From positions 32,001 to 96,000 of IMG/VR virus record IMGVR_UViG_3300022602_000039: a stretch of DNA of 64,000 nucleotides, one strand, 5' to 3'. This document shows, piece after piece, positions 10,618 to 33,426 of the stretch (the first letter of the stretch is position 1; each line of letters starts with the position of its first letter). Made by a program: the position numbers and the translations under genes. The stretch is from a virus. Under the pieces are notes generated by a model. It had not been told where the DNA came from. It saw only the letters and a list, made by a program, of their open reading frames with translations, and ran no database searches.

Positions 10618-10638
10618 TAGTGCTCAGGGAGAGACTCG
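10618..10638 (-). pseudogene. tRNA 3'-end remnant (T-loop to acceptor)
   Basis: CGAGT CTCTC CCTGAGC A CTA, fused to the 3' end of tRNA-Leu(TAG). Confidence 0.7.
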
Positions 10639-10705
10639 GGTGGGAGTCGAACCCACAAAATTCTGCTCCTAAGGCAGACGGATATGCCAATTCTCCTACC
10701 GAGGC
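10632..10705 (-). tRNA. tRNA-Leu(TAG), short variable loop, chimeric 3' end
   Basis: GCCTCGG/CCGAGTC (2:71 mismatch); TCTGC CT TAG GA GCAGA; 5-nt V loop. Confidence 0.85.
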
Positions 10706-11178
10706 GTTATTTTTTTAATGTATGATTTCTTAGCTGCTGTCGGGCAACCGTCTTTATATTTATATCTGTTTTTTCTGTATGTATCAGTTTGACTGTGACA
10801 GTTAGGACATAAAAGACGTATATTTTCTCTTCTGTTATCCAACCTATCACCGTTAATATGATCTAATTCTATAGTAATTTCTTTTCCCTGCCAGCTTTTT
10901 ATACCGCATAAAGAGCATTTATTTTCTCTCTCTCTAAAAACCCATTTGCGCAACGTTGTGCTTGGAATAAATTTTTTTGTAGTAAACACATCTGCTTCTG
11001 TTTTATAAGATTTGGGCTTTACTCTACCTTTTCCAGCAGGATTAGGATCAAATAAATCATACTCTTCAGCTTTAGTTTTAAAGACACTATAACTGCACTT
11101 AAGATATCTTGCAGCTGCCTGCATTGATAGTGTTGCAGCTATGGCACCCTTTATTTGTTCGTATGAAAAGTTTCTCAT
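10696..11178 (-). CDS. HNH homing endonuclease
   Basis: CSLCG...IELDHINGDRLDNRRENIRLLCPNCHSQT; stop codon lies inside the tRNA-Leu 5' end. Confidence 0.9.
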   Translation of the reverse strand: MRNFSYEQIKGAIAATLSMQAAARYLKCSYSVFKTKAEEYDLFDPNPAGKGRVKPKSYKTEADVFTTKKFIPSTTLRKWVFRERENKCSLCGIKSWQGKEITIELDHINGDRLDNRRENIRLLCPNCHSQTDTYRKNRYKYKDGCPTAAKKSYIKKITPR

Positions 11179-11188
11179 ACGGTTATTT

Positions 11189-11227
11189 ATGTTAGACGTA
11201 TTAATTATATTGTAATACGTCTAACAT
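11189..11227. promoter_or_regulatory. 15-bp perfect inverted repeat abutting the late promoter of the HNH gene
   Basis: ATGTTAGACGTATTA-9 nt-TAATACGTCTAACAT. Confidence 0.7.
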
Positions 11228-11232
11228 TTAAA

Positions 11233-11517
11233 TTATTTACCTCGGATTACAATAATTTGAGGTTGTTGTGGTGGTACAACAATGGGGGCTGCGTAATAGG
11301 TCGGATAATAACCACCGTAGCAAGGATAATACCCACCGTAATAAGGATAATATCCACCATAGTAACCACCCCATCCGCCTACAAATCCGCCTCCCCAGCA
11401 TCCTCCTCGATAATACCCACCGCCATAGTACCCACCACCGCAGTAGTAGGCTTTGGCTGGCATCAAGCTACAGAGAAAGAGTGTAACAAGAGCAATAGCG
11501 AGTGTTTTGAGTTTCAT
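11233..11517 (-). CDS. secreted Gly/Tyr-rich low-complexity protein
   Basis: Signal peptide MKLKTLAIALVTLFLCSLMPAKA followed by GGYY repeats. Confidence 0.7.
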   Translation of the reverse strand: MKLKTLAIALVTLFLCSLMPAKAYYCGGGYYGGGYYRGGCWGGGFVGGWGGYYGGYYPYYGGYYPCYGGYYPTYYAAPIVVPPQQPQIIVIRGK

Positions 11518-11558
11518 ATGAGTATTATGGCTATATTTAGTTGTATATGCAAGCAAAA

Positions 11559-11640
11559 TGGTGAGGACGGTTGGGATCGAACCAACATACTCCAGTTACA
11601 CATTTAACGACCGCTTAGAAGGCGGGTGTGATACGTCCCC
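11559..11640 (-). tRNA. non-canonical tRNA-Arg(TCT) lacking a D-arm, with a long variable region
   Basis: GGGGACG/CGTCCTC ACCA; only TATCACA precedes the anticodon arm CCCGC CT TCT AA GCGGT; 23-nt V region; GTTGG TTCGATC CCAAC. Confidence 0.8.
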
Positions 11641-11646
11641 GTAAGT

Positions 11647-11853
11647 TTAATATTTAAACAAATCTAGAATACCTTTTTGTTTATCTAATTCCGTAATAAA
11701 ACCTTCGTCTTCAAGATATTTTTTAATACTATCCCAAGCTCGTTCTTCAAGAAAACCTCGTGTCTGAACTGCAACCTGAGTACCGTTAACTTCACAATTA
11801 AACTCCATACCACTATAAACAATAGTAAAAGAATATTGATTATGTTTTTTCAT
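11647..11853 (-). CDS. hypothetical protein (YLxxEGF motif)
   Basis: Shares its C-terminal motif with 17665-17877. Confidence 0.6.
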   Translation of the reverse strand: MKKHNQYSFTIVYSGMEFNCEVNGTQVAVQTRGFLEERAWDSIKKYLEDEGFITELDKQKGILDLFKY

Positions 11854-12033
11854 TGACGATGAAGCTCAGCAGTTGGTAGAGGCCTATATGTACGAATGAA
11901 ATTCCTGATAGGAGTACTAAAAATAAGACATGTTGATACTACGATGAGTATAGCTAGAGAACAGCTAAAGACAAGCTTCATCTTTAGTGTTTGTTTTAAT
12001 TCTGGTTGTTGTTTAAGTTGCATATATAAAAAA

Positions 12034-12056
12034 TGGTACCTGTGGTCGGATTCGAA
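12034..12056 (-). pseudogene. tRNA 3'-end remnant (Leu-like)
   Basis: TTCGAAT CCGAC CACAGGT A CCA with no upstream tRNA body. Confidence 0.8.
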
Positions 12057-12085
12057 AATAAAGATTCAAAAGCATAAATATTATT

Positions 12086-12799
12086 ATGCCTTGTTTATTT
12101 CCTATTAATATAGCTCAATCTGTTAAGAAGTGCGACGGAAAAATTATAAAATTTAAATGTGATGGTTGTGGAGAAATATACCTAAAAAGTAAAGTATATT
12201 GGTATCATAATGTCATTAACAAGAAACGCACGGTTTCTTTTTGTACTAAACAATGTGAAATGAAATATAGGTTTGTACGATGTGGTAGTATTAATGGTAA
12301 ATGTAAACAGTGTGAAAAGAATATAGTTGTGAGAAAACGTGATCAAAAGCTACGAAAAAATCACTTCTGCTCTAAAAGTTGCGCCGCTACATACAACAAT
12401 ACACATAAGCAATCAGGTACCCGCCGCTCAAGACTCGAAAAATGGATTGAGGAACAGCTTATTATTCTATATCCGAATATACAATTTAAGTTTAACAAAA
12501 AAGATGATATTGAATCAGAACTCGATATCTATATACCACATTTAAAGTTAGCGTTTGAGCTTAATGGTATATTTCATTACGAACCAATTTTTGGTAAGCA
12601 GTTACTTGAAAAAATGGAAAATAATGATCAACGAAAAATGCAAGCGTGTTTAGAACGAGGTATTGAACTTTGTATTATTAATACATCTCAGCAAACATAT
12701 TTTAAATCACGTACATCGCAAAAATATTTAGATATTATAACTAATATTATTAATAATAAAATGGTGGTCCTACCCGGGGTCGAACCGGGAAGCCTTTAG
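12086..12799 (+). CDS. Zn-finger + PD-(D/E)XK (Vsr/DUF559-like) putative homing endonuclease
   Basis: CxxC repeats, FCSKSCAATYNN, RSRLE...ELDIYIPHLKLAFELNGIFHY; ends antisense inside tRNA-Leu(TAA). Confidence 0.85.
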   Translation: MPCLFPINIAQSVKKCDGKIIKFKCDGCGEIYLKSKVYWYHNVINKKRTVSFCTKQCEMKYRFVRCGSINGKCKQCEKNIVVRKRDQKLRKNHFCSKSCAATYNNTHKQSGTRRSRLEKWIEEQLIILYPNIQFKFNKKDDIESELDIYIPHLKLAFELNGIFHYEPIFGKQLLEKMENNDQRKMQACLERGIELCIINTSQQTYFKSRTSQKYLDIITNIINNKMVVLPGVEPGSL

Positions 12800-13046
12800 G
12801 GCAGCGGATTTTACTTACCACTATAGCTTTCGCTACTCTTTCGATTTGTGGTCTGGACTATGCCTTTACCTTTGTATTGCTACTTTAGGTAGATGATTAT
12901 AGTCTCTACACCTTCTCATTTCTGAGCTTGGCTCGGCGTTGGGAGGTTAAACCGTTCACCGAATTTACATCTTACTAATATAGAATTTCTTCTATACCGA
13001 CCCCTTACTTGTAGTCCGCTGTGTTTGCCAATTTCACCATAGGACC
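12762..13046 (-). tRNA. tRNA-Leu(TAA) split by a group I intron (exons 13046-13013 and 12813-12762)
   Basis: GGTCCTA/TAGGACC ACCA; spliced loop GCGGA CT^TAA AA TCCGC; long V arm. Confidence 0.9.
12814..13012 (-). ncRNA. group I self-splicing intron (IC3-like, 199 nt, no ORF)
   Basis: P AATTCGGTGAA, Q AACGCCGAGC, R GTAGAGACTA, S AAGGCATAGTCC; P1 exon GACU pairs with intron GGUC including the U.G pair; terminal G. Confidence 0.9.
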
Positions 13047-13096
13047 ATATTTTATTAAAGTTTTATTTTTTAAAAATTATTCATACCTCCTCTTTA

Positions 13097-13420
13097 TTAA
13101 TACCATTTTAAGTGCACTGGCTTATTATGGCAATCAAGAAATTCACCCTGTTTAAACTCTATACACTTATAGGTACCCATCTCTTCTAGGAAGAGTTTAT
13201 CCCCAGATGTCATAGGGTTAACATACCGCATTCCATCTTTAGTAATGGGAGCATTATTACAAATATATCCAAGTTCACAAGCTGCTTTAAGAAGAGACTT
13301 ATCCTTACCGGTTCGTGATACTTTCTTCTGAGCGCGTTCAACAATACGATGGGATTTACGAAAGGATTTTTCAAGCTCTTTAGCCTTTACGTCAATGTCT
13401 TTAAGGATATATTGTTTCAT
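13097..13420 (-). CDS. hypothetical protein
   Basis: ORF between tRNA genes. Confidence 0.65.
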   Translation of the reverse strand: MKQYILKDIDVKAKELEKSFRKSHRIVERAQKKVSRTGKDKSLLKAACELGYICNNAPITKDGMRYVNPMTSGDKLFLEEMGTYKCIEFKQGEFLDCHNKPVHLKWY

Positions 13421-13426
13421 TTAAAA

Positions 13427-13503
13427 TGGTGGGCCGGGTCGGAATTGCACCGACAGTCTCTACCGTTATGAGCAGTGTGTTTTAACTATTAAACTACCAG
13501 CCC
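13427..13503 (-). tRNA. tRNA-Ile2(CAT), lysidine-type
   Basis: GGGCTGG/CCGGCCC ACCA; CACTG CT CAT AA CGGTA; TGCAATT T-loop; Ile2 rather than Met is inferred from the acceptor stem. Confidence 0.8.
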
Positions 13504-13541
13504 CAGATTGATTTATAGTTCGAATGTGATTAAATAATAAT

Positions 13542-14033
13542 ATGAATTGTTTAAAATGCAATAAAGAACTTACAAGTAGATGGTCTAAGCGCTTTTGTAA
13601 TAAAAGTTGCGCGGCTAGCTATAATGGTAGAGTACATCCTAAGCGTAGTAAAGAGAGATTGAAATGGCCTAAGTGTAGAGAGTGTAGTAATACTGTTGTT
13701 GCAAAATATTACAAATATTGTAGGGAGTGTATTGAAAAGCGAAAACATTATCACGGTACACCTGCTGACGAGCAAACAATCGCACTTGCTTCCAGAAGAG
13801 GCGGTGCTAATCGATATGATATAATCAGAGCTCATGCACGTAGGATTTATAAAAAAGAATTAGAAGGTAGTTGTGAGAAGTGTAATTATAATAAACATGT
13901 TGAGCTTTGCCACATTAAGCCTATTTCCTCATTTGATAAAAATATAACAATAGCAGAAGTTAATAAGAGAGAAAATATTTTATTCTTATGTCCAAATTGT
14001 CATTGGGAATTTGATCATATATTACCGGAATAG
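13542..14033 (+). CDS. Zn-finger HNH endonuclease
   Basis: FCNKSCAASYN N-terminus; CEKC...VELCHIKPI...N..ENILFLCPNCHWEFD. Confidence 0.9.
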   Translation: MNCLKCNKELTSRWSKRFCNKSCAASYNGRVHPKRSKERLKWPKCRECSNTVVAKYYKYCRECIEKRKHYHGTPADEQTIALASRRGGANRYDIIRAHARRIYKKELEGSCEKCNYNKHVELCHIKPISSFDKNITIAEVNKRENILFLCPNCHWEFDHILPE

Positions 14034-14147
14034 ATAATACAACTCAAGCAAAAAAAGAAGTACACCCAATCCTATTGTACTCCATACAGTAACAGGGTGT
14101 TCCCAGATGTTCTGAATAAAGATACGAATAGGATTGAGCTTAATCAT
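14022..14147 (-). CDS. small membrane protein (41 aa)
   Basis: MIKLNPIRIFIQNIWEHPVTVWSTIGLGVLLFLLELYYLFR*, AAGGAG upstream; below the ORF-track cutoff. Confidence 0.5.
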   Translation of the reverse strand: MIKLNPIRIFIQNIWEHPVTVWSTIGLGVLLFLLELYYLFR

Positions 14148-14308
14148 TACTCCTTATCCTCGTCGAGGATTTCCTTAATCTCCTCGTTAAGACGCTTAAT
14201 CTCATCACCGAAAGCTTTAGCTGAAGCCTTCTTACGATGTTTTGTATCTTCGAGTTCTTGGACGAGTTGATAGACTCGCTGTTCTTTACTTGGTTTTGGT
14301 TCTGTCAT
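14147..14308 (-). CDS. small coiled-coil protein (53 aa)
   Basis: MTEPKPSKEQRVYQLVQELEDTKHRKK...EDKE*; coupled to the next gene by TAATG. Confidence 0.55.
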   Translation of the reverse strand: MTEPKPSKEQRVYQLVQELEDTKHRKKASAKAFGDEIKRLNEEIKEILDEDKE

Positions 14309-14313
14309 AAAGT

Positions 14314-14580
14314 CTAGCCCCCAGCAATCGCCGGTACAATAGAGATGATATCATTCTCTTGAATATCGTTTGTAGATAGAAATCTCATATCTTCATCGTT
14401 TACAAATATATTAATAAATCTACGAATCTCACCATTCTCATCATAGAGTCTTTCCTTGATATCGGGGTAGGAAAGACAGAGAAGCTGTAAACACTCATCT
14501 AGTGTCTTACCAAACGTTTTGATCTCTTCGCTTCCTCCAACGAGTTTTCTTAACGGTACTGGAATTCTAATTGTTGCCAT
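14314..14580 (-). CDS. MoaD/ThiS-family ubiquitin-like protein
   Basis: Beta-grasp signature IRIPVPLR...RRFINIFVNDEDMRFL...ISIVPAIAGG with C-terminal GG. Confidence 0.92.
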   Translation of the reverse strand: MATIRIPVPLRKLVGGSEEIKTFGKTLDECLQLLCLSYPDIKERLYDENGEIRRFINIFVNDEDMRFLSTNDIQENDIISIVPAIAGG

Positions 14581-14595
14581 AAATTTATTTAAAGT

Positions 14596-14619
14596 TGGAA
14601 GTGGGTGCGGGAATCGAAC
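14596..14619 (-). pseudogene. tRNA 3'-end remnant
   Basis: GTTCGATT CCCGC ACCCACT T CCA with no tRNA body. Confidence 0.8.
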
Positions 14620-14652
14620 TTGTATCTATCCGGCTGTTCAATAAATAATAAT

Positions 14653-15357
14653 ATGAAATGCACAAATTGCAACAATGAACTTATACACCGTGATCAAAAA
14701 AAATTTTGTTGTCGGTCATGCGCGGCTTCTTATAACAATAAGATCAAGGGACCTAGGTCAATCACTACAAGGGAAAAAACGAGTAAGACATTAAAAGATC
14801 GTGCCGATAAATTAGGTAGAAAACACCCTAAGAATGGATCAATGTTTGTAAGAGTATGTCGTATATGTAAAACAGAATTTTTGCATGTGAAATATAGCAA
14901 GAATTTATGCAGCTATAAATGTCAGGTTGAACTGAAAAGATTTTTTAATAAGCAGGTTCAAGCTCAAGGTAGAGGTATATGGGCAAAACGTAGTCGAAGC
15001 AAGGGCGAAAAATTACTCGCTGAAAAATTAGCTAAAATTGGAGCTAACGTTATAACAAACAAGCACATGTTTAGTGGCTACGATGCAGATATAATTTTAC
15101 CGGATTATAAGTTAGCCATACATTGGAACGGTGCTTGGCACTGGAAGCCCTTAAGAGGTGAGCAGTTACTCAAAAAGATAAAAGCACGGGATGAAGAACG
15201 ATATAAAGCTGTTGAACAGGCAGGGTATATAAACCTTATAATTATAGACCATAAATTCACCACAGCGGAGCAAGCTGCCGATATACACTTTCGAAAGCTG
15301 GTGCGCTTGCTCGGACTTGAACCGAGACCAGGGGATTATCTATCCGAACAGGTATAA
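14653..15357 (+). CDS. Zn-finger + PD-(D/E)XK putative homing endonuclease
   Basis: KFCCRSCAASYNN, RSKGE...YDADIILPDYKLAIHWNGAWHW; likely ATG at 14653 after ATAAATA; ends antisense in tRNA-Ile(TAT). Confidence 0.85.
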   Translation: MKCTNCNNELIHRDQKKFCCRSCAASYNNKIKGPRSITTREKTSKTLKDRADKLGRKHPKNGSMFVRVCRICKTEFLHVKYSKNLCSYKCQVELKRFFNKQVQAQGRGIWAKRSRSKGEKLLAEKLAKIGANVITNKHMFSGYDADIILPDYKLAIHWNGAWHWKPLRGEQLLKKIKARDEERYKAVEQAGYINLIIIDHKFTTAEQAADIHFRKLVRLLGLEPRPGDYLSEQV

Positions 15358-15388
15358 GCTGTCCTGCTCTACATTAAGCTACAAGCGC
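15299..15388 (-). tRNA. tRNA-Ile(TAT) with long variable arm
   Basis: GCGCTTG/CAAGCGC ACCA; GGACAG CT TAT AC CTGTTC; GGAT-AGATA-ATCC hairpin in the V region; CTCGG TTCAAGT CCGAG. Confidence 0.8.
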
Positions 15389-15428
15389 AAAAAAATTACA
15401 TTAACCCACCATTTCCATCTATTATAGA

Positions 15429-15908
15429 TTATCGCTCTAAGTGGGCAAGCTGTTTCCTTAGCTCTTTATTCTCTTTCTTGAGCTTTTCAATTTCAGATGC
15501 TTCATTAAGTCGGGCCTGATACCAACCAATACGCTTCTGTTTAACATACTCAATAATATCTCTAATTTCTTGATAATCATTAGGTACAAAGATCTCAGTT
15601 ACACCTTTAATCTTTTGATCAAGCCAGAGATTCTTCGGATACATTCTCTTAAGCTCTTCTTCAGCTTCTAGTACCTCTCTAGTTGGACCGTAAGCTGTTG
15701 TCATAATCTTTATATCCCAGAGATTGTACTCCTCATTTAGAAAGCGATGGGCAGCATCATACTTCCCTGTAACCCCTATTTTATAAAAACTCTTTACATC
15801 TTCTGTCTTCGATGTAAAACGTGCGAGATAGAGTTTAATATTTTTATATCTAAGGAGCTGTTCTTGAAACATACCCCATATTATGCTATCACTCGTCTGC
15901 AGAGTCAA
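15429..15908 (-). CDS. GIY-YIG-like (T5orf172-type) protein
   Basis: LYLARF...FYKIGVT...E.E...GVTEIF pattern. Confidence 0.55.
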   Translation of the reverse strand: MTLQTSDSIIWGMFQEQLLRYKNIKLYLARFTSKTEDVKSFYKIGVTGKYDAAHRFLNEEYNLWDIKIMTTAYGPTREVLEAEEELKRMYPKNLWLDQKIKGVTEIFVPNDYQEIRDIIEYVKQKRIGWYQARLNEASEIEKLKKENKELRKQLAHLER

Positions 15909-16131
15909 GCAATTTCTTTAACTCTTTCATTTCATAATCATGGCGTGCTTTAAGTTCATCACACTCACGATTAAACTCTTTTAATTTCTTCTTGTTAGGT
16001 TTCGTTAAATTTATATCACAACCACTTTCAAAAATATAATCATTTATCTTCTCAGATAATTCATCCATCTTATCCTGAATCCAATCAAGATTATTATAGA
16101 TAGCAATTATCTTTTGAATAGTTTCAATCAT
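15889..16131 (-). CDS. hypothetical protein
   Basis: Coiled-coil ORF coupled to its neighbours. Confidence 0.6.
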   Translation of the reverse strand: MIETIQKIIAIYNNLDWIQDKMDELSEKINDYIFESGCDINLTKPNKKKLKEFNRECDELKARHDYEMKELKKLLDSADE

Positions 16132-16898: not shown

Positions 16899-16901
16899 TA
16901 C

Positions 16902-17084: not shown

Positions 17085-17116
17085 AAATTATTGAAATTAT
17101 TTATAAATAGTTATGT

Positions 17117-27253: not shown

Positions 27254-27278
27254 GTATGTATAATAATGGCTATTTTTA

Positions 27279-27452
27279 CTATTGACAGTGATAATTTAAA
27301 TAACGTTGAGCGGCTTTAGCTGTCAAACCACCCTTACCTTTAAGTCTGCGTGCTTTAGAACAAGTTAATTTACCTTTAACCTGGCGTTTAAGAATACCAG
27401 GATGACGTGGTTCATCTATACTCTTCTCTAAAACATACTCTTTAAATGTCAT
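27279..27452 (-). CDS. small basic protein with T4 internal-protein-like N-terminus (57 aa)
   Basis: MTFKEYVLEKSIDEPRHPGILKRQVKG...HCQ*; ATAAATA upstream; below the ORF-track cutoff. Confidence 0.6.
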   Translation of the reverse strand: MTFKEYVLEKSIDEPRHPGILKRQVKGKLTCSKARRLKGKGGLTAKAAQRYLNYHCQ

Positions 27453-27469
27453 AAGAGTATTTATGGGGT

Positions 27470-27488
27470 AGCGATAAGTAGGAGTCGA
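27470..27488 (-). pseudogene. tRNA 3'-end remnant (U73, Cys-like)
   Basis: TCGACT CCTAC TTATCGC T; correct T-loop / 5-nt / 7-nt spacing. Confidence 0.6.
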
Positions 27489-27502
27489 GAATAAGTAATG
27501 AT

Positions 27503-28357
27503 ATGATCAAAGAAATTAGTAAATTAAAAAATGCTGATATATTATCTGTTGCATGTAGTTTTTGCAATAAAGAATTTAAACGCAAGGTACGGGATATACG
27601 AGCATCGATACGGCGTCGTGGCAGTGATGCCAACAAAATGTATTGTAGTGCTATATGTTCAAATAAAGTAAAAAATAGATCTATAACTACAGAATGCAAA
27701 CAGTGTGGTGAGAGTGTATCGCTGTGGTTGTGTCAAATAAATTCTAAGTATAGAAAATCACAAAATGCATTTTGTAGTACAAAATGTGCAGCAACATATA
27801 ATAATAAGCAGCGATATGTAAATTATATCCCGAAAGTTAAAGACAAAAAAATTAAACACAAGACATGTTATCAGCGTATATGCATACATTGTAACATAGA
27901 ATATACAACACAAAATAAAATATCATCATATTGTTCTGGTCGTTGTAGAAACTTAAATTTAAAGTTGCACAGTTTTGCACATAAGAGTAGCGGTAAATCT
28001 CGTTCAAAGATCGAAGAATATCTCGAACAAAAACTAACAACAGACTATCCAAATTTAGAAATAAAATTTAATGATAAAGATACTATATATTATGAATTAG
28101 ATATACATATTCCAAAGTATAATTTAGCGTTTGAATTAAATGGTGTATTCCATTATCTACCTATCTATGGAGAGGAGACGCTTAAGAAAACGCAGTATAA
28201 GGATCAACAAAAACTACTACGATGTAAAGAAAAAAATATAGATCTACATGTTATAAACCTCGGCAACACATGTTTTTCAAAAGAAAGAGGGGATATAATT
28301 TATAATACTATTATTGATATTATAAAATCACGCTCGGGACAGAGTCGAACTGTCTAA
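27503..28357 (+). CDS. Zn-finger + PD-(D/E)XK putative homing endonuclease
   Basis: FCSTKCAATYNN, RSKIE...ELDIHIPKYNLAFELNGVFHY; ends antisense in tRNA-Cys. Confidence 0.85.
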   Translation: MIKEISKLKNADILSVACSFCNKEFKRKVRDIRASIRRRGSDANKMYCSAICSNKVKNRSITTECKQCGESVSLWLCQINSKYRKSQNAFCSTKCAATYNNKQRYVNYIPKVKDKKIKHKTCYQRICIHCNIEYTTQNKISSYCSGRCRNLNLKLHSFAHKSSGKSRSKIEEYLEQKLTTDYPNLEIKFNDKDTIYYELDIHIPKYNLAFELNGVFHYLPIYGEETLKKTQYKDQQKLLRCKEKNIDLHVINLGNTCFSKERGDIIYNTIIDIIKSRSGQSRTV

Positions 28358-28401
28358 AAGTTCTTTTGCAGAGAACCGCCTAGCCGTTTAGCTTCCGAGC
28401 G
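28330..28401 (-). tRNA. tRNA-Cys(GCA)
   Basis: CGCTCGG/CCGAGCG T; GTTCT CT GCA AA AGAAC; no encoded CCA. Confidence 0.9.
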
Positions 28402-28412
28402 ATATTTAAAAT

Positions 28413-28503
28413 TGGAGGAAGTGGTAGGATTCGAACCCACGGTACCATTTCTGGTACTTCGCATTTCAAGTGCGACGCATTATGACCACTCTGCCACACT
28501 TCC
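28413..28503 (-). tRNA. tRNA-Ser(TGA)
   Basis: GGAAGTG/CACTTCC TCCA; TCGCA CT TGA AA TGCGA; long V arm. Confidence 0.95.
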
Positions 28504-28548
28504 ATTCATTTATATTAGATTATTTAAGAGATAAGTCAAGAAAAAAAT

Positions 28549-28638
28549 TGGAAGGAGCGGTGGGATTCGAACCCACGGAACCGATTAAGGTTCGGGAATT
28601 TAGTAAATTCCTGCTTTCGGCCTCTCAGCCACACTCCC
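28549..28638 (-). tRNA. tRNA-Ser(ACT), rare A34 anticodon
   Basis: GGGAGTG/CGCTCCT TCCA; GGAAT TT ACT AA ATTCC; long V arm. Confidence 0.9.
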
Positions 28639-28693
28639 ATAAAAAATATATTATATAGTGCTCCAGGTGCTCAATCCAGAACTAAATTAAACT

Positions 28694-29168
28694 TTATTTA
28701 ACCTCGATACTGATATTATGTACCTCCGGTTTCACGACAGGGACCTTAACTCGTAGTAGCCCGTCTGTGTATGTTGATGAGATGTTCTTAACGTCCGTAT
28801 TGTCATTAAGAGAGAAGGACAACTGTCCCTTTCTACGGCTAATGCCTTTACGATGGAAGACAACTGTCTCATCATATTCGACCTCTTCCTCTTTATTAGT
28901 ATTAATGTGGAGTTTACCCTCCTTAACATTAACAGTAATATTATCCTTACCAACCCCTGCCAATGCTACCTCAATGTAGTACGCATATGGATTTCCATCA
29001 GGGTCGGTTTCCGATACAATGTTATAAGGATAGGTCGCGTTTGGAACATCAAACGCTTTATCAAGATCCTTGATAACGCTACTTAACCAACTTTCGTTAA
29101 ACAGGCCTGGAAGTTGGCTATAACCAAGTCCTGTTGCCGGAATGACCCGGCCTAGTGTGTATTGTCAT
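28694..29168 (-). CDS. small heat-shock protein Hsp20/IbpA; ATG is out of frame by 1 nt
   Basis: YPYNI...IEVALAGVGK...HRKGISRR...YTDGLLRV; AAAGGAG and ATG at 29168, but the reading frame begins 7 nt later. Confidence 0.85.
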
Positions 29169-29256
29169 ATTTTTTCTCCTTTGTTAAGCGAGTTAATATG
29201 TTTGCTTTAGTCCCAAATGTGAGCACCTGAGCTATAAATAATTATGCTTTAAGATT

Positions 29257-29826
29257 GTGAAAAATCAAGAAAATAATAAAAAATATTATATTTACGGTTA
29301 TATTGATCCTGAAAATAACAATGAATTGTTTTATATAGGTAAAGGCTGCAGGTACCGTTATAGAAATATTAGCACGCGAATGTGTAATAGATTATTATAT
29401 AAGAAGCTTGTAACGTTACTAGAAACATACAATATTGATAGTATTACAAAAAAGATTGCAGTAAATTTATCTGAAGATGAAGCGTACGCTCTTGAAATAC
29501 AATTAATAGCAAAAATAGGAAGACGAAACATTGGATCTGGTACTTTACTCAATTTAACACCAGGTGGTGATGGTTTAGTTGGTGTTGCGAACTTAAACAG
29601 TTACTATAAGAGTAAGCCTTGTCGGTTGATTTGTAGTGATGGTCGTGAATGGCTATTTGAAAGTAAGCAGGATGCTATTAGAAAAGGATTTCCGGGGCAT
29701 ATTATAGAAAAAGCTATAAAAACCGGTTCACATACATTAGGCAATAGCACCTATAAAAGAATAAAAAACAGTAAAGCAACTATACAGTTTAAAAATGGTG
29801 ATACAATCACATACATGCGTTTATAG
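29257..29826 (+). CDS. GIY-YIG-family homing endonuclease
   Basis: YYIYGY...FYIGKG...R; E.A..LE..LI..IGR...G.LLNLTPGGDG. Confidence 0.85.
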   Translation: MKNQENNKKYYIYGYIDPENNNELFYIGKGCRYRYRNISTRMCNRLLYKKLVTLLETYNIDSITKKIAVNLSEDEAYALEIQLIAKIGRRNIGSGTLLNLTPGGDGLVGVANLNSYYKSKPCRLICSDGREWLFESKQDAIRKGFPGHIIEKAIKTGSHTLGNSTYKRIKNSKATIQFKNGDTITYMRL

Positions 29827-29840
29827 ATTTCTATAATCAA

Positions 29841-30515
29841 TTAAATTTTGATTTTTTGTCTGTAAACTTTAAAGTTCTCTTTTAGTTCTTTTACCACATT
29901 ATTGTAGTTCTTTTGTTCAGCCTTAGTACGCTTCTTCTTATCTTTAAGAGTATAAAATTCTGTTGTAAGGTAGGCTTGAATCTCGTCGTCCATGACAGAT
30001 CTATCATAGCCTAATTCAAGAAGAACATCTTCAGCCTTTTTACGGAGAGAGCGATGAAGCTTTTTAAGAATCTTAAGAGTGTTCTCTTTATATTCCTTAT
30101 CTAAGAAAAAGAGAGCATGACAGCATTCATGTTCAATTGTACTGACGTCAGTATTTGAACCAATTAGATAATAATGATTACTTTCAATTTCTGTTACAAT
30201 CTTATTATGGATATTAAGAATAATATCATCATAGATATTATAATCTTCAATTTTGTAATCGTAAAGACTAGCAACAATAGGCCCAGGAATATTAAACCCT
30301 CCCCAATCCATAGGGTAGGTAAATGACCCTTCATTCTTCTTCGAATAAACAGCCATTAATTCAATAAGTGTAAATCTCTTTCCACGAATTTGCTTAAACG
30401 GCGATTCATAGAATTCTTGTACTCTACAAAAGGTCATAGCAAGATCATACATATCCTCTATCTTACAGAGATAGATACCAGGGTATAGCTTTTTAAGTGA
30501 ATATTTGATCTTCAT
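29841..30515 (-). CDS. HEXXH-containing conserved phage protein
   Basis: RVQEFYESP...GFNIP...EHECCHALF...DEIQAY. Confidence 0.65.
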   Translation of the reverse strand: MKIKYSLKKLYPGIYLCKIEDMYDLAMTFCRVQEFYESPFKQIRGKRFTLIELMAVYSKKNEGSFTYPMDWGGFNIPGPIVASLYDYKIEDYNIYDDIILNIHNKIVTEIESNHYYLIGSNTDVSTIEHECCHALFFLDKEYKENTLKILKKLHRSLRKKAEDVLLELGYDRSVMDDEIQAYLTTEFYTLKDKKKRTKAEQKNYNNVVKELKENFKVYRQKIKI

Positions 30516-30530
30516 TTTTTATTTATTCTT

Positions 30531-30605
30531 TGGCATTCCCGACGGGATTTGAACCCGTGCCAGGTCTGTGAAAGAGACCGGTGCTAACCACTACACTACG
30601 GGAAC
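30531..30605 (-). tRNA. tRNA-Glu(TTC)
   Basis: GTTCCCG/CGGGAAT GCCA; GGTCT CT TTC AC AGACC. Confidence 0.95.
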
Positions 30606-30608
30606 CAG

Positions 30609-30657
30609 AAAAAGACCGGGCGTGAGATAGCTTGCATGTGCAGAGGCCCGCCCGGTT
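30609..30657 (-). terminator. intrinsic terminator
   Basis: ACCGGGCG...CGCCCGGT stem followed by a T-run on the minus strand. Confidence 0.55.
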
Positions 30658-30669
30658 TACTTTACTTAC

Positions 30670-31767
30670 TTATGCTTCGAGATTAGCAGGAGCAACATCA
30701 CGGAACGGATCCGGTGCAACCGCTGCAAAATCAGGTCCCTTGAAGAAGAGATCAGACGCTAGGCGATTGAGCTCCATACGGAAGGCAATATTCTCATCCG
30801 TAACATGATGGGTAGCGACATTAGTCAAGTTATTGAACAAGTCATACGCATTAACGTTTGAGTTCGCTGTTGACTGCCAGCGAGTACCCTTCTTAGCAAC
30901 ATCAATACCAATAGTCTTATAACGACCCTTGATCTCGTTATCGTTAAACATCTCTACGGCAAGCTCCTTATCAAGATCCATAACAAGCTTACGTGCGTTG
31001 TAGTACTCACGGATAGAAGCGTTATTATCACGTAGACGATTTGCGTTAGCTGAGACTTCTTCACGGAGAACGTCACCGGTCATAAACTTACGAACCTGGG
31101 TATCAAAGGTACGCTGACTGAAGTCTGCACTATCAATGAAGCGCTGGGCCATACGATGAACAGCGGGCATTCCGTTCGAACAAACAAGACGGAGAAGATA
31201 AGGATAGAACTGTGACTTATTCATCGAGAAGTTCATTCCAAAACCACCCTTCCACATATCACGACCATCTCCGAAAACATCAATATCGGAATCTGGATTC
31301 TTGAAGTTAATTCCAATACTAATGTTCATAGGATCGAAGTTAAAATCCCGAAGCTCGAGATTGTTCTCGTTATCCCTCAAAAAGGCCTCAGTATAACGAA
31401 GGCCTGCGGAAAGATCAATCTGACGCTCTTCCTTAATAGGACGGTCAAAGAGATTGACAATCTCATTATTGTGGTTGTTAACAATCGCAGTTACACGCTT
31501 GTTCTTCTTGATGTTCGTAAGAGCATTATGGAGTGGTGCCCACTGGGAGCTGTCATCCTTAATCTCGTTAACAAGCTGATCCTTAACTCCAAGAACTCCG
31601 AGGAGACTCTTAAGAGAATTATTAGCTAGTCGGTTATTGTTGTAGGAGAAGTTATTACCGTTCTTCTCGATGGACTCAATATCCAGAGGTGCGAGGGTGT
31701 AGCCTTGCAACGTCTGGCGAATATCATTGCTCTTGGCAACGAACTTATCTAGTGTTGTTGTACTCAT
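30670..31767 (-). CDS. DUF932/DUF945-like phage protein
   Basis: RLVCSNGM motif and NAYDLFNNLTNVATH. Confidence 0.65.
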   Translation of the reverse strand: MSTTTLDKFVAKSNDIRQTLQGYTLAPLDIESIEKNGNNFSYNNNRLANNSLKSLLGVLGVKDQLVNEIKDDSSQWAPLHNALTNIKKNKRVTAIVNNHNNEIVNLFDRPIKEERQIDLSAGLRYTEAFLRDNENNLELRDFNFDPMNISIGINFKNPDSDIDVFGDGRDMWKGGFGMNFSMNKSQFYPYLLRLVCSNGMPAVHRMAQRFIDSADFSQRTFDTQVRKFMTGDVLREEVSANANRLRDNNASIREYYNARKLVMDLDKELAVEMFNDNEIKGRYKTIGIDVAKKGTRWQSTANSNVNAYDLFNNLTNVATHHVTDENIAFRMELNRLASDLFFKGPDFAAVAPDPFRDVAPANLEA

Positions 31768-31854
31768 GACTCCTTTATATTACGGGCACTCGATTAGGAA
31801 TTCCAGAATTATTTTTAAATTCCGGAAAGTAATTTGTATTTTACTATAAAATCA

Positions 31855-31892
31855 AAGAGAAACCCCTACCACCTGATCAGGGTAGTAGGGGT
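31855..31892 (-). terminator. intrinsic terminator ending the ncRNA cluster
   Basis: ACCCCTACTACC...GGTGGTAGGGGT followed by TTCTCTT on the minus strand. Confidence 0.7.
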
Positions 31893-32211
31893 GAGTTCGA
31901 ACTCTGCTTTCCATTTCTTTATCTCTCTGCATTTTAGGGAGAGCGACTCCTTTCCGGACTTGAGACCGGCAACTGGTAGCATTACTAAAGAAATTTGTGG
32001 TTATTTTTTGAGCTTTATACTAGTATTTGTCTCAATCTTCAACGGGTCTCGGCATGGAGCCAAGCACACCGTCTAATTCCGTGTTTACTAAAGCAAGGGA
32101 TCAAAGCTGTATGTAGGTGTTTGGCTCCCCCTATGAAAATACGTCTACTAACACACCAACGGACAACTCAACGTATCTCTCCCACGAATTATTCCTACAA
32201 CGTGGGAACTT
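31893..32211 (-). ncRNA. putative large structured RNA (~320 nt), unidentified
   Basis: No credible ORF; multiple helices: TCCCACG/CGTGGGA, GATACGT/ACGTATT, GGAGCCAAACAC/GTGCTTGGCTCC, GAGACC/GGTCTC, TTTCTTTA/TAAAGAAA. Confidence 0.55.
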
Positions 32212-32217
32212 AATTTA

Positions 32218-32326
32218 TGATTACTGGCCTATCGGAGCTAGGAAGTCTATAGCGTCCATCTAAGGATACTACTACCCGCGGCTTCGGACTAGTATTGTTA
32301 CTACCGAGGACTATACGCAGTAATCA
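32218..32326 (-). ncRNA. putative structured RNA (~109 nt)
   Basis: 9-bp closing stem TGATTACTG/CAGTAATCA; GC-enriched interior. Confidence 0.55.
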
Positions 32327-32332
32327 AATTAT

Positions 32333-32445
32333 TTTGACCGGGGTGGTTAATCCATCCTGATGCACCGGTTGATAAAGGCCTTTTAGAGCAACCTAGTCGC
32401 GCGCACGTACGGTAGCTCTTTCGATCGAGCCTGCGAACGGTCAAA
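32333..32445 (-). ncRNA. putative structured RNA (~113 nt)
   Basis: 8-bp closing stem TTTGACCG/CGGTCAAA; GC-enriched interior with a GAAA motif. Confidence 0.55.
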
Positions 32446-32458
32446 TTTTAAAATGTAC

Positions 32459-32513
32459 TGTCAAAGATCAATTCTTATTCTCTTAATATATAGTCTATTC
32501 TTGGAACCGGCAA
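32459..32513 (-). promoter_or_regulatory. sigma70-like promoter plus boxA-like element
   Basis: TTGCCG-17 nt-TATATT, then TGATCTTTGACA (rrn boxA is TGCTCTTTAACA). Confidence 0.6.
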
Positions 32514-32560
32514 CTGAAATCTTCAGTTCGATTCTATATCATGCTAGATTAAATAATAAT

Positions 32561-33415
32561 ATGTTAACTCAATATGAAAAATGGCTCAAGGGCGCTGGAA
32601 AGAGTAACGCTAAAAGATATCAACAAAGATTAAACAATTACAACAATAATCCTAAATTATGTGCGTATTGCAAACATCCTTTAAGCTATGAATTGAGAAA
32701 TAACAAATACTGCGACCATACTTGTTCTGCTTCCTTTACGAATAAAAGTAGATCAGAGTCAGGATATAGTTTAAAAGGAAAAACAAAAGCATCTATTTGC
32801 ACTAAATGTAATAGTACTGTAGAAATAGGTTGTAATGCATCAGCTTTAAGAGCATTATGTACCAAATGTAAATTACAATATGTACGTAAACACTGTAAGC
32901 AATGTAAAAATATATTTTACGGTAGACCAAATAGAAAGACATGTAGTAATGAGTGTGCTAGTTTAGCAAAACGTATAGGGGCTATTAATGGAGGTAAAAA
33001 ATCTGCTGCTATACAATCTCAAATAAGAAGAAGCAAAAATGAAATATATTTTGCTGAACTTTGTAAATTACATTTTACAAATGTTTTAACAAATGAACCT
33101 TTGTTTAACGGTTGGGATGCTGATATTATATTGCCTGATTTTAAAATAGCTATAATGTGGAACGGTGCTTGGCATTATAAACAAATAACAAAAAAGCATT
33201 CTGTAGAACAGGTACAAAATAGAGACAAAATAAAAATAAAAGAAATCGAACAGGCAGGTTATACATCTTATGTAATAAAAGATCTAGGCATTGAAAATAA
33301 AAAATTTGTCATTAATCAATTTAATAAGTTTCTTAAAAATATGGCGGGAGTGGGAATTGAACCCAACGCGCTCTTTCGAGCTGATGCTTATGAGACATCC
33401 GACTTTGTCCTCTAG
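32561..33415 (+). CDS. Zn-finger + PD-(D/E)XK putative homing endonuclease
   Basis: YCDHTCSASFTN, RSKNE...WDADIILPDFKIAIMWNGAWHY; likely ATG at 32561 after TAAATA; reads antisense across most of the CAT tRNA. Confidence 0.85.
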   Translation: MLTQYEKWLKGAGKSNAKRYQQRLNNYNNNPKLCAYCKHPLSYELRNNKYCDHTCSASFTNKSRSESGYSLKGKTKASICTKCNSTVEIGCNASALRALCTKCKLQYVRKHCKQCKNIFYGRPNRKTCSNECASLAKRIGAINGGKKSAAIQSQIRRSKNEIYFAELCKLHFTNVLTNEPLFNGWDADIILPDFKIAIMWNGAWHYKQITKKHSVEQVQNRDKIKIKEIEQAGYTSYVIKDLGIENKKFVINQFNKFLKNMAGVGIEPNALFRADAYETSDFVL

Positions 33416-33426
33416 TCTATCCCGCG
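33342..33426 (-). tRNA. tRNA-CAT (Met-type) with C1:C72 mismatch and long variable arm
   Basis: CGCGGGA/TCCCGCC A; GATGT CT CAT AA GCATC; V arm GCTC GAAA GAGC. Confidence 0.8.

Follow-up and report, generated by a model that had tools for sequence, protein, structure and literature searches.

Integrase-borne genomic islands and prophages insert in the 3′ ends of tRNA genes, and in cyanophages the nuclease F-CphI and the psbA intron reportedly practise collaborative homing. Phage T4 offers an example within a tRNA cluster, namely SegB, a free-standing GIY-YIG homing endonuclease of proven activity. According to the available sections of its description, SegB recognises a 27-bp site containing the conserved T-psi-C motif GGTTCRANTCC, cuts a tRNA-Asn gene and drives preferred inheritance of the linked tRNA region (PMC2330249). 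A further relevant enzyme, I-Bth0305I, is characterised in the available part of its account as a homodimer preferring a 14-bp pseudopalindrome centred on the cut, which lies beside the insertion site (PMC3239194). In the accessible text on the 'fractured gene' endonucleases, tRNA is mentioned only with regard to I-Ssp6803I (PMC2677866).

Here we describe a tRNA-rich region of an uncultured lake phage for which T4 SegB is a close functional precedent. As with SegB, to the extent covered by the SegB account, a free-standing nuclease gene sits within a phage tRNA array and is missing from otherwise homologous relatives, and isoacceptor tRNA genes vary among those relatives; SegB cuts the tRNA gene of a rival phage, as the nucleases described here would be predicted to do. 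The two systems differ in fold, which is GIY-YIG in SegB and combines zinc fingers with a Vsr-like domain here. They also differ in that a fixed antisense position relative to the tRNA 3′ end, a scar beginning at T54 and a 20-nt repeat are not described in the available SegB text (PMC2330249). That text already credits SegB with recognition of the T-psi-C motif and with driving the inheritance of a tRNA region (PMC2330249), so the idea of tRNA swapping is less new than an earlier note on this DNA stated.

Nuclease genes antisense to a tRNA array

The window, meaning the whole stretch of DNA analysed, comprises 64,000 nt of the 130,033-bp IMG/VR record IMGVR_UViG_3300022602_000039. All of its ARAGORN tRNAs (17/17) are encoded on the - strand, and four paralogous ORFs, the sole copies within the 130,033-bp virus record, are encoded on the + strand:

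12086..12799, + strand: HEG1, putative free-standing homing-endonuclease gene whose product combines a Vsr-like (EDxHD-type) nuclease domain with two CxxC...CxxxC zinc fingers
14653..15357, + strand: HEG2, second-subfamily paralogue (AIHWNGAWHW; His replaces the near-invariant Glu)
27503..28357, + strand: HEG3, HEG1-subfamily paralogue
32561..33415, + strand: HEG4, second-subfamily paralogue (AIMWNGAWHY)

The HEG2 frame is open from a GTG at 14605 and that of HEG4 from 32453. All four stop codons fall inside intact tRNAs, which are Leu(UAA), Ile(UAU), Cys and (CAU) for HEG1 to HEG4, respectively. The final 38 nt of HEG1 lie antisense over the tRNA-Leu 3′ exon, and the final 59, 28 and 73 nt of HEG2, HEG3 and HEG4 similarly overlap their tRNAs. 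The earlier note had claimed both that four paralogous ORFs lie antisense to the tRNA array and that each ends within an intact tRNA, and the strand assignments and the ARAGORN overlaps (4/4) agree with it.

An AF2 model of HEG1 (pLDDT 87) matched Vsr, PvuRts1I and I-Bth0305I in Foldseek (for the last, 3r3p_B, TMt 0.68, prob 1.0), and a PDB profile search returned 3r3p_A (E 0.01). In a comparison of 49 sequences D147, H164 and D181 never vary, E158 is near-invariant and both Cys4 fingers are retained; the N-terminal part consists of FCS/TRASH-like zinc fingers, with PF06467 matched by 22 of the 49. The near-invariant Glu is replaced by His in HEG2 and by Met in HEG4, so the nuclease activity of these two proteins is uncertain. 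The C-terminal nuclease fold and the catalytic Asp/His/Asp are shared with I-Bth0305I and the 'fractured gene' endonucleases. Members of this EDxHD family are likewise multidomain proteins with a separate DNA-binding part, occur mainly in phages and can be stand-alone inserts that break a gene which stays functional (PMC3239194, PMC2677866). In contrast to the present genes, the known members in these accounts lie in group I introns, between split-intein halves or in protein genes (PMC3239194, PMC2677866), and the broken gene is healed there by an intron or intein, whereas here it would be healed by a duplicated gene end. The FCS/TRASH-like N-terminal part and the absence of the family's conserved Glu from HEG2 and HEG4 are further differences.

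The motif TAAATAWTAWTATG precedes HEG1, HEG2 and HEG4 exactly and HEG3 with 2 mismatches. At most one mismatch being allowed, it has 8 matches as compared to 1.06 expected, including sites upstream of an HNH gene and a small membrane protein gene, and the looser TAAATA-N5-ATG occurs 12 times over both strands (2.67 expected). Because the motif also stands before non-HEG genes and on both strands, we take it to be a general start signal of the phage. The 'own late promoter' ascribed to each HEG is thus a real motif and a putative promoter, but not one specific to these genes. On the + strand, TTCGATTC occurs 27 nt upstream of the HEG4 ATG. Outside tRNA and tmRNA genes TTCGAWTC has 6 matches in the 130-kb record, of which 3 lie within 35 nt upstream of the starts of HEG1, HEG2 and HEG4, the one near HEG4 being on the opposite strand to the other two.

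Replacement of same-anticodon tRNA alleles

Each nuclease gene and its tRNA are treated below as a cassette, numbered as the HEGs, with the following associated features:

12762..13046, - strand: incoming allele 1, class II tRNA-Leu(UAA), called by ARAGORN -i only (exon 1 13046-13013, intron 13012-12814, exon 2 12813-12762)
12034..12056, - strand: scar 1, T54-to-CCA of a displaced class I tRNA(UAA)
15299..15388, - strand: incoming allele 2, tRNA-Ile(UAU), 90 nt, long variable arm
15394..15410, - strand: 5′ stub of the displaced tRNA-Ile(UAU), its first 17 nt
14596..14619, - strand: scar 2, the displaced tRNA-Ile(UAU) from G53/T54 to CCA, immediately upstream of ORF 14314-14580
28330..28401, - strand: incoming allele 3, tRNA-Cys(GCA), U73, CCA not encoded
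27464..27490, - strand: scar 3 (probable), degenerate T-loop-to-3′-end with U73, one base from the HEG3 start motif
27450..28649, no strand assigned: high-identity tract against locus L001, 97-100% identity, flanks 70-91% (binned pairwise identity)
33343..33425, - strand: tRNA(CAU) linked to HEG4, 83 nt, long variable arm

Three orphan tRNA 3′ ends beginning at the T-loop had been described. Those at 12034-12056 and 14596-14619 indeed start at T54, with an in-register CCA and the T-rich tail that characterises tRNAs of this phage, whereas the remnant at HEG3 is degenerate. As also claimed, the remnants fail to pair with the 5′ strand of the neighbouring tRNA (3/7 and 1/7 acceptor pairs, read by hand).

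For cassette 1, 4 IMG/VR contigs (L005-L008) carry a different tRNA(UAA), intact and 76 nt long, whose 3′ end scar 1 matches at every position (23/23). In two of them, L005 and L006, this old-type tRNA directly adjoins homologues of the window's flanking ORFs, with synteny on both sides, and a contig of run X5 joins 12056 to 13097 via 60 other letters, thereby representing a nuclease-free allele 1. The old allele has the same anticodon loop as the linked tRNA-Leu, but uninterrupted; in the latter, U33 and U34 are separated by a group I intron of 199 nt without an ORF, which Rfam Intron_gpI matches at 38.6 bits (E 1.4e-8, 331-nt search), below the gathering score of 50.

For cassette 2, scar 2 matches the 3′ end of the Ile(UAU) allele of L007 at 22 of 24 positions, and a newly found 5′ stub, separated from the incoming tRNA-Ile(UAU) by TTTTT, is identical to the start of that allele (17/17). 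A loose end of run X5 at 15394 runs on as that allele. In L005 an intact tRNA-Ile(UAU) stands directly before an 82%-identical homologue of ORF 14314-14580, and in L090 a HEG2 homologue (56% identity) likewise abuts tRNA-Ile(UAU). An exact 23-mer of scar 2 had no match in IMG/VR. Immediately ahead of scar 2, however, 10 nt (CGGATAGATA) agree with the variable arm of the incoming-type allele, so a single clean event is insufficient and scar 2 may be nested.

All junctions of cassettes 1 and 2 are crossed, with 0 differences, by contigs from two other lake-metagenome samples (runs X2 and X3), and in X2, X4 and X5 there are loose ends that lead into old-type tRNAs. The earlier note had called for reads across the junctions and predicted that ORF-less relatives would carry intact same-anticodon tRNAs ending in the remnants, and for UAA (exact, 4 contigs) and UAU (22/24 plus the stub) such relatives do so. 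Together, the intact tRNAs of these relatives and the junction-spanning contigs show, at the level of allele comparison, that at cassettes 1 and 2 a unit of tRNA plus nuclease gene replaced an older same-anticodon allele, with one junction at the T-loop.

A third replacement, at the Cys cassette, is likely. Scar 3 reads TCTCGACTCC where TTCGACTCC is expected, without CCA in register. At its syntenic site L136 carries an intact tRNA-Cys(GCA), directly before a flank shared with the window (27 nt, from the terminal CCA at 27466 to 27440) that leads into an 88%-identical homologue of ORF 27279-27452. The same prediction is therefore borne out here for the intact tRNA-Cys but not for its ending: no intact tRNA ending in the scar 3 sequence was found, and a scar 3 17-mer occurs only in the L001/L089 contig. 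Cassette 3 is itself present in an independent IMG/VR contig, and L001 carries a HEG3 copy at 97% identity (pN/pS 0.33, from only 8 non-synonymous and 6 synonymous differences). The high-identity tract spans scar 3, HEG3, tRNA-Cys and two tRNA-Ser genes, as would be expected if this DNA had recently been converted or transferred along with the nuclease gene.

At the HEG4 locus there is no same-strand scar; homologues of its subfamily abut tRNA(CAU) in 11 of 40 rows. A fourth remnant, said to be fused to Leu-UAG (about 10618-10631), was not upheld, as no matching tRNA 3′ end was found among the 584 tRNAs of loci L001-L088.

The layout in other uncultured phages

A survey of IMG/VR yielded 313 pattern-matched stretches, 233 of which encode a relative, and the best 80 loci were examined. 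Among the 74 unique homologues in these loci, 54 have a convergent tRNA at the stop codon (within -120..+100 nt), whereas randomly placed positions gave 12.7 +/- 3.0 and, in 2000 draws, never more than 22; 20 have no called tRNA next to the stop. At the same time, 460 of 472 tRNAs at these loci are antisense to the nuclease gene. The same nuclease-against-tRNA layout is thus common to many other uncultured large phages.

Orphan T-loops on the tRNA strand peak 0-49 nt upstream of the ATG (24, as compared to 0-7 in every other 50-nt bin) and are seen in only 24-31 of the 74 homologues; the sequence before T54 is a recurring AT-rich ...ATT. Upstream of the ATG, 9 of 53 nuclease genes with a convergent tRNA carry an exact repeat of the adjacent tRNA of at least 12 nt (control, 1/53) and 7 of 53 one of at least 16 nt. 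All seven directly repeat 17-20 nt of the tRNA 3′ end; six begin at T54, and four of these extend for 20 nt as far as the discriminator. The HEG2/HEG4 subfamily differs from the rest of the family: a tRNA stands next to the stop in 24 of 40 rows, 12 of these on the same strand, and an orphan T-loop is present in only 3 of 40.

Probable insertion at the T-loop and its alternatives

The best explanation, and one we consider probable, is that the HEGs are free-standing Vsr-like (EDxHD) homing endonucleases of a tRNA-specialised clade that insert at nucleotide 53/54. The exact 17-20-nt repeats leave both 3′ ends indistinguishable, so the basic event looks like an insertion that enters a tRNA gene where the T-loop begins and bears its own 3′-end copy, and a whole-allele swap looks like one outcome of it. 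The claim that nuclease plus tRNA allele replaces a rival's allele therefore stands as to the replacement of old alleles and gives way as to the basic event. The inserted DNA would carry either a tRNA 3′ segment of its own or an entire tRNA gene and thus leave a working tRNA in place, and the original T54-to-3′-end would stay beyond the nuclease gene as scar and homology arm. By analogy with SegB and I-Bth0305I, the nuclease would initially cut nuclease-free tRNA genes in or near the pseudo-palindromic T-arm, and spread would proceed by double-strand-break repair in mixed infections, the linked tRNA being co-converted. Heterologous swaps would arise by crossover within the T-loop, the sole stretch common to unrelated tRNAs. 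Three of the four copies here would thereby have imported a heterologous same-anticodon tRNA (Leu-UAA with its group I intron, Ile-UAU and Cys-GCA) and overwritten the resident, the anticodon presumably being kept because selection maintains the phage's decoding set.

It is unlikely that cutting takes place elsewhere, in a flank or another part of the tRNA, and that the T54 boundary arises from T-loop microhomology. Under this reading illegitimate crossovers would land in the T-loop since it is the only microhomology of unrelated tRNA genes; the swapped alleles in the window do share little outside it, and tRNAs adjoin the HEG2/HEG4 subfamily in both orientations with scars being rare. Yet in the available accounts I-Bth0305I cuts beside its insertion site (PMC3239194) and SegB recognises the same motif (PMC2330249), and crossovers of unlike tRNAs cannot produce exact repeats of 17-20 nt shared by a tRNA and its own scar.

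Ordinary turnover of tRNA arrays, with nuclease genes settling in DNA that contains pseudo-tRNA fragments, would fit the differing arrangement of such arrays among related phages and the several homologues that lie scarless between two intact tRNAs. We find it very unlikely given the peak of scars just upstream of the ATG, their start at T54 after ...ATT, a nuclease gene 97-100% identical between genomes with 70-91% flanks, and nuclease-free relatives that carry the intact old tRNA rather than a scar. Integrase- or transposase-mediated islands with the nuclease gene as cargo are highly improbable: tRNA 3′-end direct repeats do flank the insert in 7 relatives, and as in tRNA-targeting islands the insert restores the tRNA, but the inserts are about 0.7-1.0 kb and contain only a nuclease gene and tRNA, and the four HEG ORFs match no integrase or transposase family. 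The repeat here moreover starts exactly at T54, and in the window the two ends derive from different tRNA alleles. For cassette 1 only, collaborative homing is conceivable, in that HEG1 would target the anticodon loop of an intron-less tRNA(UAA), the intron would protect the linked allele, and nuclease and ORF-less group I intron would travel together. The intron after U33, the uninterrupted loop of the old allele and, as with F-CphI, a free-standing nuclease gene neighbouring a target gene whose group I intron has no ORF accord with this, but it is quite unlikely: cassettes 2-4 and most relatives have no intron, and the scar boundary at T54 lies outside the anticodon loop. ARAGORN introns of at least 100 nt occur in only 2 of 54 convergent tRNAs at stops (L038, L055), as compared to 13 of 559 tRNAs of the same loci, which is no clear enrichment, and the intron-bearing tRNA of L025 is only a second neighbour. 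An assembly chimera might be suspected in a metagenome assembly with repeated tRNA-like sequence, but with the X2 and X3 contigs across cassettes 1 and 2 and the independent contig for cassette 3 it is scarcely conceivable.

Under insertion at the T-loop, the adjacent intact tRNA retains its T-arm unbroken, and self-immunity would therefore require either a long target or some other protection; immunity would be explained as well by the disruption of such a long target as by a resistant allele. The origin of the first 20-nt direct repeat lies beyond standard double-strand-break repair. Swapping of tRNAs is a plausible explanation for the phage's many odd tRNAs.

Nuclease genes antisense to the tRNA array

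Large phages carry many tRNA genes, and the gain, loss and exchange of these sets are poorly understood. The window covers bases 32001-96000 of a 130,033-bp IMG/VR virus record, whose completeness is estimated at 60% and which has near-identical DNA in lake and freshwater metagenomes. All 17 of the tRNA genes found by ARAGORN in the window lie on the minus strand, and an Rfam search of the window additionally gave a tmRNA and two weak tRNA-like matches. Antisense to this array are four paralogous zinc-finger and Vsr-like endonuclease ORFs, HEG1 to HEG4, which are the sole copies in the whole record; the paralogues are 24-40% identical to HEG1 over the longest ORFs.

Paralogous nuclease ORFs in the window
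12086-12799, + strand, HEG1, paralogous ORF
14653-15357, + strand, HEG2, paralogous ORF
27503-28357, + strand, HEG3, paralogous ORF
32561-33415, + strand, HEG4, paralogous ORF

As the earlier note had claimed, the ORF and tRNA calls place the stop codon of each gene inside an intact tRNA; these linked tRNAs, which with their nuclease genes make up cassettes 1 to 4, are tRNA-Leu(UAA), tRNA-Ile(UAU), tRNA-Cys(GCA) and tRNA(CAU), in that order. The proteins fall into two subfamilies, HEG1 with HEG3 (motif ..AFELNG.FHY) and HEG2 with HEG4 (motif ..AI(H/M)WNGAWH(W/Y)). Pfam gave nothing above threshold for the four ORFs, only sub-threshold matches, and PHROG profiles for 'homing endonuclease' and 'HNH endonuclease' matched HEG1 to HEG3 at E 1e-6 to 2e-13 and HEG4 weakly. 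An alignment of 49 family members revealed two conserved Cys4 fingers, of the FCS type (PF06467) by profile match in 22 of the 49, together with invariant D147, H164 and D181 and a glutamate, E158, in at least 90%. Foldseek searches with an AlphaFold (AF2) model of HEG1 (pLDDT 87, pTM 0.64) retrieved PvuRts1I (E 4.4e-4), Vsr (1cw0/1vsr) and the catalytic domain of I-Bth0305I (3r3p_B; TMt 0.68, probability 1.0), and a profile built from the four window proteins matched 3r3p_A in the PDB at E 0.01. Because of these fold matches and the profile match to 3r3p, the HEGs belong to, or are closely akin to, the Vsr-like 'EDxHD' homing-endonuclease family described previously (PMC2677866; PMC3239194). 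The aligned residues E158, D147, H164 and D181 would correspond to the letters of that name; HEG1 and HEG3 have the Glu, Asp, His and Asp complete, whereas HEG2 and HEG4, which belong to the family by fold, lack the conserved Glu and have His and Met in its place, respectively. A homodimer prediction for the nuclease domain scored 0.00, which is no evidence in either direction. The C-terminal residues of HEG1 that are encoded antisense to the tRNA were modelled with low confidence (block pLDDT 57), and therefore the tRNA overlap looks incidental to the protein.

Scars and intact tRNAs in nuclease-free relatives

Orphan tRNA 3' ends that begin at T54 and keep CCA in register occur on the tRNA strand upstream of the HEG1 and HEG2 starts; we refer to these as scars 1 and 2, and to a probable equivalent at HEG3 as scar 3. 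The motif TTCGAWTC occurs six times outside tRNA and tmRNA genes in the 130-kb record, and three of these matches are within 35 nt of HEG start codons. The junctions of cassettes 1 and 2 are real rather than an assembly artefact, since all of them are spanned with 0 differences by contigs from two sequencing runs of other samples (X2 and X3).

The earlier note had taken the scars to be the tails of displaced tRNAs with the same anticodon, and related contigs bear this out for cassette 1: four IMG/VR contigs without the nuclease carry an intact 76-nt class I tRNA(UAA) whose last 23 nt match scar 1 exactly. In one of them, L006, this tRNA directly follows a homologue (82% identical) of window ORF 13097-13420, and in L005 the tRNA(UAA) is followed by a homologue of ORF 11647-11853; in the window, nucleotides 1-53 of the old tRNA(UAA) are replaced by an intron-bearing tRNA-Leu(UAA) and HEG1. 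Similarly, a nuclease-free relative (L007) has a tRNA-Ile(UAU) that ends like scar 2, with agreement that is close rather than exact (22 of 24 nt); as an exact 23-mer scar 2 had 0 matches in IMG/VR, and the likeness was found by alignment. The first 17 nt of the L007 allele are present at 15394-15410, just upstream of the present tRNA-Ile(UAU), with 17/17 identity, and in L005 a tRNA-Ile(UAU) directly precedes a homologue of ORF 14314-14580, at the position that scar 2 takes in the window. At cassette 3 the claim stands in part. An intact tRNA-Cys(GCA) occupies the syntenic place in contig L136, where it ends directly before a flank shared with the window, whose 27 nt, counted from the terminal CCA, lead into a homologue (88% identical) of ORF 27279-27452; the scar itself is degenerate, its 17-mer was seen solely in a contig that also carries cassette 3, and short pieces of it gave no useful match among the 584 tRNAs of loci L001-L088. 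From the allele matches of scars 1 and 2 and the synteny at scar 3, read from sequence comparison, the three scars therefore mark places where relatives keep an intact tRNA whose anticodon is also that of the tRNA linked to the nuclease in the window. A fourth remnant proposed at tRNA-Leu(UAG) is unsupported, its short pieces being without a useful match among the same 584 tRNAs, and HEG4 has no scar on the same strand, the nearby TTCGATTC lying on the opposite one.

Both states occur in nature. In L005 to L008 and in one contig of run X5 the flanking genes are kept, the tRNA is intact and the nuclease gene is absent. The X5 contig joins 12056 to 13097 through 60 other letters, matching in length what L006 would predict, namely a 7-nt spacer and nucleotides 1-53 of the old tRNA. 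In X2, X4 and X5, loose contig ends run on as old-type tRNA(UAA), and in X5 also as old-type tRNA-Ile(UAU). This comparison was of contigs, not reads, and shows presence rather than frequency; it leaves aside runs X6-X22, with small word shares, and uncovered stretches in X4 and X5. As judged from these contigs, cassettes 1 and 2 are polymorphic, with nuclease-plus and nuclease-free states both in lake populations. Signs of recent movement were seen at cassette 3, where the window and contig L001 are 97-100% identical in every 150-nt bin of 27450-28649 and 70-91% identical in the bins on either side. This tract spans scar 3, HEG3, tRNA-Cys and two tRNA-Ser genes, so that flanking markers are co-converted with the nuclease gene in this one genome pair, and between the two HEG3 copies there are 8 non-synonymous and 6 synonymous differences (pN/pS 0.33, from few sites).

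A recurrent arrangement in uncultured phages and a possible route of exchange

A pattern scan of IMG/VR matched 313 stretches, of which 233 encode relatives; the best 80 loci, mostly HEG1-like, were studied, and removal of identical proteins left 74 genes for counts. A convergent tRNA with its 3' end within -120 to +100 nt of the stop codon accompanies 54 of these 74, as compared to 12.7 +/- 3.0 at random positions of the loci (maximum 22 in 2000 draws). In these loci 460 of 472 tRNAs are antisense to the nuclease gene, and the linked tRNAs have many different anticodons. In seven relatives linked to tRNA(CAU) (L009, L013, L028, L046, L047, L052 and L079) the tRNA 3' end is +49 to +60 nt from the stop codon, a near-constant spacing that hints at a conserved element between the two. 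Orphan T-loop motifs on the tRNA strand are most frequent 0-49 nt before the ATG (24, against 7 in the next bin inward and 0-6 elsewhere), and the base preceding T54 almost always lies within an AT-rich ...ATT. A first count in a 125-nt zone had given 26 of 75 against about 3.9 expected, though some of the 26 are probably not scars. Among 19 chosen from them for the presence of a convergent tRNA, the scar was identical or near-identical in 7, similar in 2 and different or doubtful in 10. A motif-free comparison of each linked tRNA with the 150 nt upstream of the ATG gave a longest exact match that reached 12 nt or more in 9 of 53 genes and 16 nt or more in 7 of 53, as compared to 1 of 53 at 12 nt or more in a control region. 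Six of the seven longer matches begin at T54, and four extend 20 nt to the discriminator.

The arrangement is less consistent in the HEG2/HEG4 subfamily. A tRNA lies beside the stop codon in 24 of 40 rows, 12 of them convergent and the other 12 on the same strand; tRNA(CAU) is present in 11 of 40 and an orphan T-loop in only 3 of 40. The closest homologue of HEG2 (L090, 56% identity) shares its start motif and also lies directly against a tRNA-Ile(UAU). Among cultured phages, 10 kb compared by megablast with GenBank phages gave no match, and tblastn of HEG1 against 50,697 GenBank phage records gave none at E 1e-10 and five partial nuclease-domain matches at E 1e-3; no full-length homologue was found in those 50,697 records, which may be why the clade has gone undescribed. 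In literature outside subscription journals and supplements we found no Vsr-like endonucleases at tRNA genes, T54 scars or healing by a duplicated tRNA end.

The insert, about 0.8-1.0 kb of nuclease gene and tRNA, occupies the place of one tRNA in relatives. One of its junctions is T54, and in relatives it can have exact repeats of nucleotides 54-73 on either side. Because of the T54 junction we infer a cut of the nuclease-free allele near the insertion point. This cut would fall within or close to the T-arm of nuclease-free tRNA genes; in our own reading, the DNA of the T-arm is a 17-bp pseudo-palindrome around TTCGAA. The break would be repaired from a nuclease-plus genome during mixed infection, with the scar and downstream DNA as homology on one side and the 5' part of the tRNA or upstream DNA on the other; with donor and recipient tRNAs unlike, the crossover would fall in the T-loop and the entire incoming tRNA would be copied in. 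The earlier note had supposed a 'resistant' incoming tRNA, which would not be needed if a long footprint gave self-immunity: in the nuclease-plus state the full site would be gone, with new DNA downstream of the intact tRNA and no upstream half at the scar. The proposed mechanism accounts neither for the origin of the first 20-nt repeat nor for a 10-nt piece of incoming-type variable arm that sits before scar 2.

Cutting and repair are proposed here by analogy with two precedents, SegB and I-Bth0305I. SegB cuts a tRNA-Asn gene, and its 27-bp site contains GGTTCRANTCC (PMC2330249). The homodimeric I-Bth0305I has a footprint of about 60 bp and prefers a 14-bp pseudopalindrome centred on the cut, and its cleavage adjoins its own insertion site (PMC3239194). 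SegB is the closest known case by function, although the HEG fold differs (Vsr-like versus GIY-YIG). Membership of the Seg (GIY-YIG) family is ruled out by this fold together with the absence of a GIY-YIG match for any of the four ORFs, and the HEGs nevertheless resemble intron-less homing of the SegB/SegF type in having nuclease-free relatives and co-converted flanks. Collaborative homing, with an ORF-less group I intron at the nuclease target in the linked allele, could apply at most to cassette 1, the only one with an intron, which may or may not lie in the target. An integrase-mediated tRNA-targeting island is very unlikely, since the inserts hold the nuclease ORF and a tRNA alone, with no tyrosine or serine recombinase.

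These cassettes physically tie a selfish nuclease gene to the replacement of a tRNA by another, unrelated in sequence but equal in anticodon. The tail of the displaced tRNA persists as a dated scar, and both states are found in lake populations. The recurrent anatomy in many uncultured phages, with the junction at a single nucleotide of the tRNA, suggests a concrete, testable route of tRNA turnover, and the same route could spread unusual tRNAs, intron-bearing ones included. Duplication of a gene end would be a third harmless way for a homing endonuclease to reside in an essential gene, beside introns and inteins. Phage tRNAs reportedly help in escaping defences that cut tRNAs, and SegB has reportedly been connected with the amplification of loci of this kind; by analogy the cassettes could matter in phage-host arms races. 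It is a tentative and, taken whole, rather doubtful reading that this large zinc-finger, Vsr-like clade, known to date from uncultured phages alone, forms a dedicated tRNA-gene exchange system, in which a dimer reading the pseudo-palindromic T-arm shared by all tRNA genes, insertion at T54, healing by its own copy of nucleotides 54-73 and transfer of whole isoacceptor genes in mixed infections would make up a main engine of tRNA turnover in large phages and possibly of escape from tRNA-cutting host nucleases. The isoacceptors carried from phage to phage would then include intron-bearing and structurally odd tRNAs.

Introns, unusual tRNAs and other elements of the array

Neither default ARAGORN nor the Rfam tRNA model detected the tRNA of cassette 1, a class II tRNA-Leu(UAA) in which a 199-nt intron follows U33. 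The intron (12814-13012, minus strand) is ORF-less, lies between U33 and U34 and scores 38.6 bits (E 1.4e-8) against a group I model, below the gathering score; only a 331-nt Rfam search detected it, and searches with the gathering threshold or over 28 kb at E<=5 did not. The classic cyanobacterial Leu(UAA) intron site is one base further on. Cassette 1 is the only one of the four with an intron in its linked tRNA, and enrichment of introns beside nuclease genes was not clear in the family loci. In L014, L022, L027, L035 and L051, ARAGORN called tRNAs with 417-666-nt inserts in the anticodon loop, which may be introns with their own ORFs or false calls.

Canonical tRNA-Leu is class II, from which a short variable arm departs; such an arm is present in the tRNA(UAA) of L005 to L008 (for example, L006 5050-5125) and in the window tRNA(UAG) at 10631-10705. 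All five of the tRNA(UAU) alleles seen have a length of 90-95 nt and a long variable arm, a class II-like build that is likewise unusual with an anticodon of the Ile type, and they are mutually very unlike in sequence.

tRNA(UAU) alleles compared
15299-15388, window
2684-2777, related contig L005
4619-4713, related contig L006
5213-5306, related contig L007
8664-8756, related contig L008

Other elements lie in the same region. A phage-encoded tmRNA directly follows tRNA-Ala in the array (34256-34702, minus strand; Rfam RF00023, 111 bits, E 1.6e-42, full model). A weak tRNA match (11562-11640, minus strand; 31.3 bits) retains CCA, an intact T-arm and an anticodon loop with UCU, with the D-arm nearly absent, and a small secreted-looking protein consisting mostly of GGY/YYG repeats is encoded within the tRNA region at 11233-11556 (minus strand). 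Two HNH endonuclease genes are also in the array, at 13542-14033 (plus strand) and 10696-11178 (minus strand); the start motif TAAATAATAATATG recurs exactly at the former, and a TTCGAA palindrome lies 17 nt upstream of that motif. TAAATA-N5-ATG occurs 12 times in the window on both strands (2.67 expected), at the very start of ORFs and with no Shine-Dalgarno sequence, a placement that suggests a promoter positioned to give mRNAs with a very short leader or none. Between ORF 30670-31767 and HEG4, about 800 nt (31768-32560) are without a long ORF; within them are a twister-P1 match at 31919-31988, upstream of HEG4 and below threshold (32.4 bits, where the gathering score is 67.2), and a hairpin motif, GCTCG(AT)CGAAAGAGC, similar to the tRNA(CAU) variable arm.
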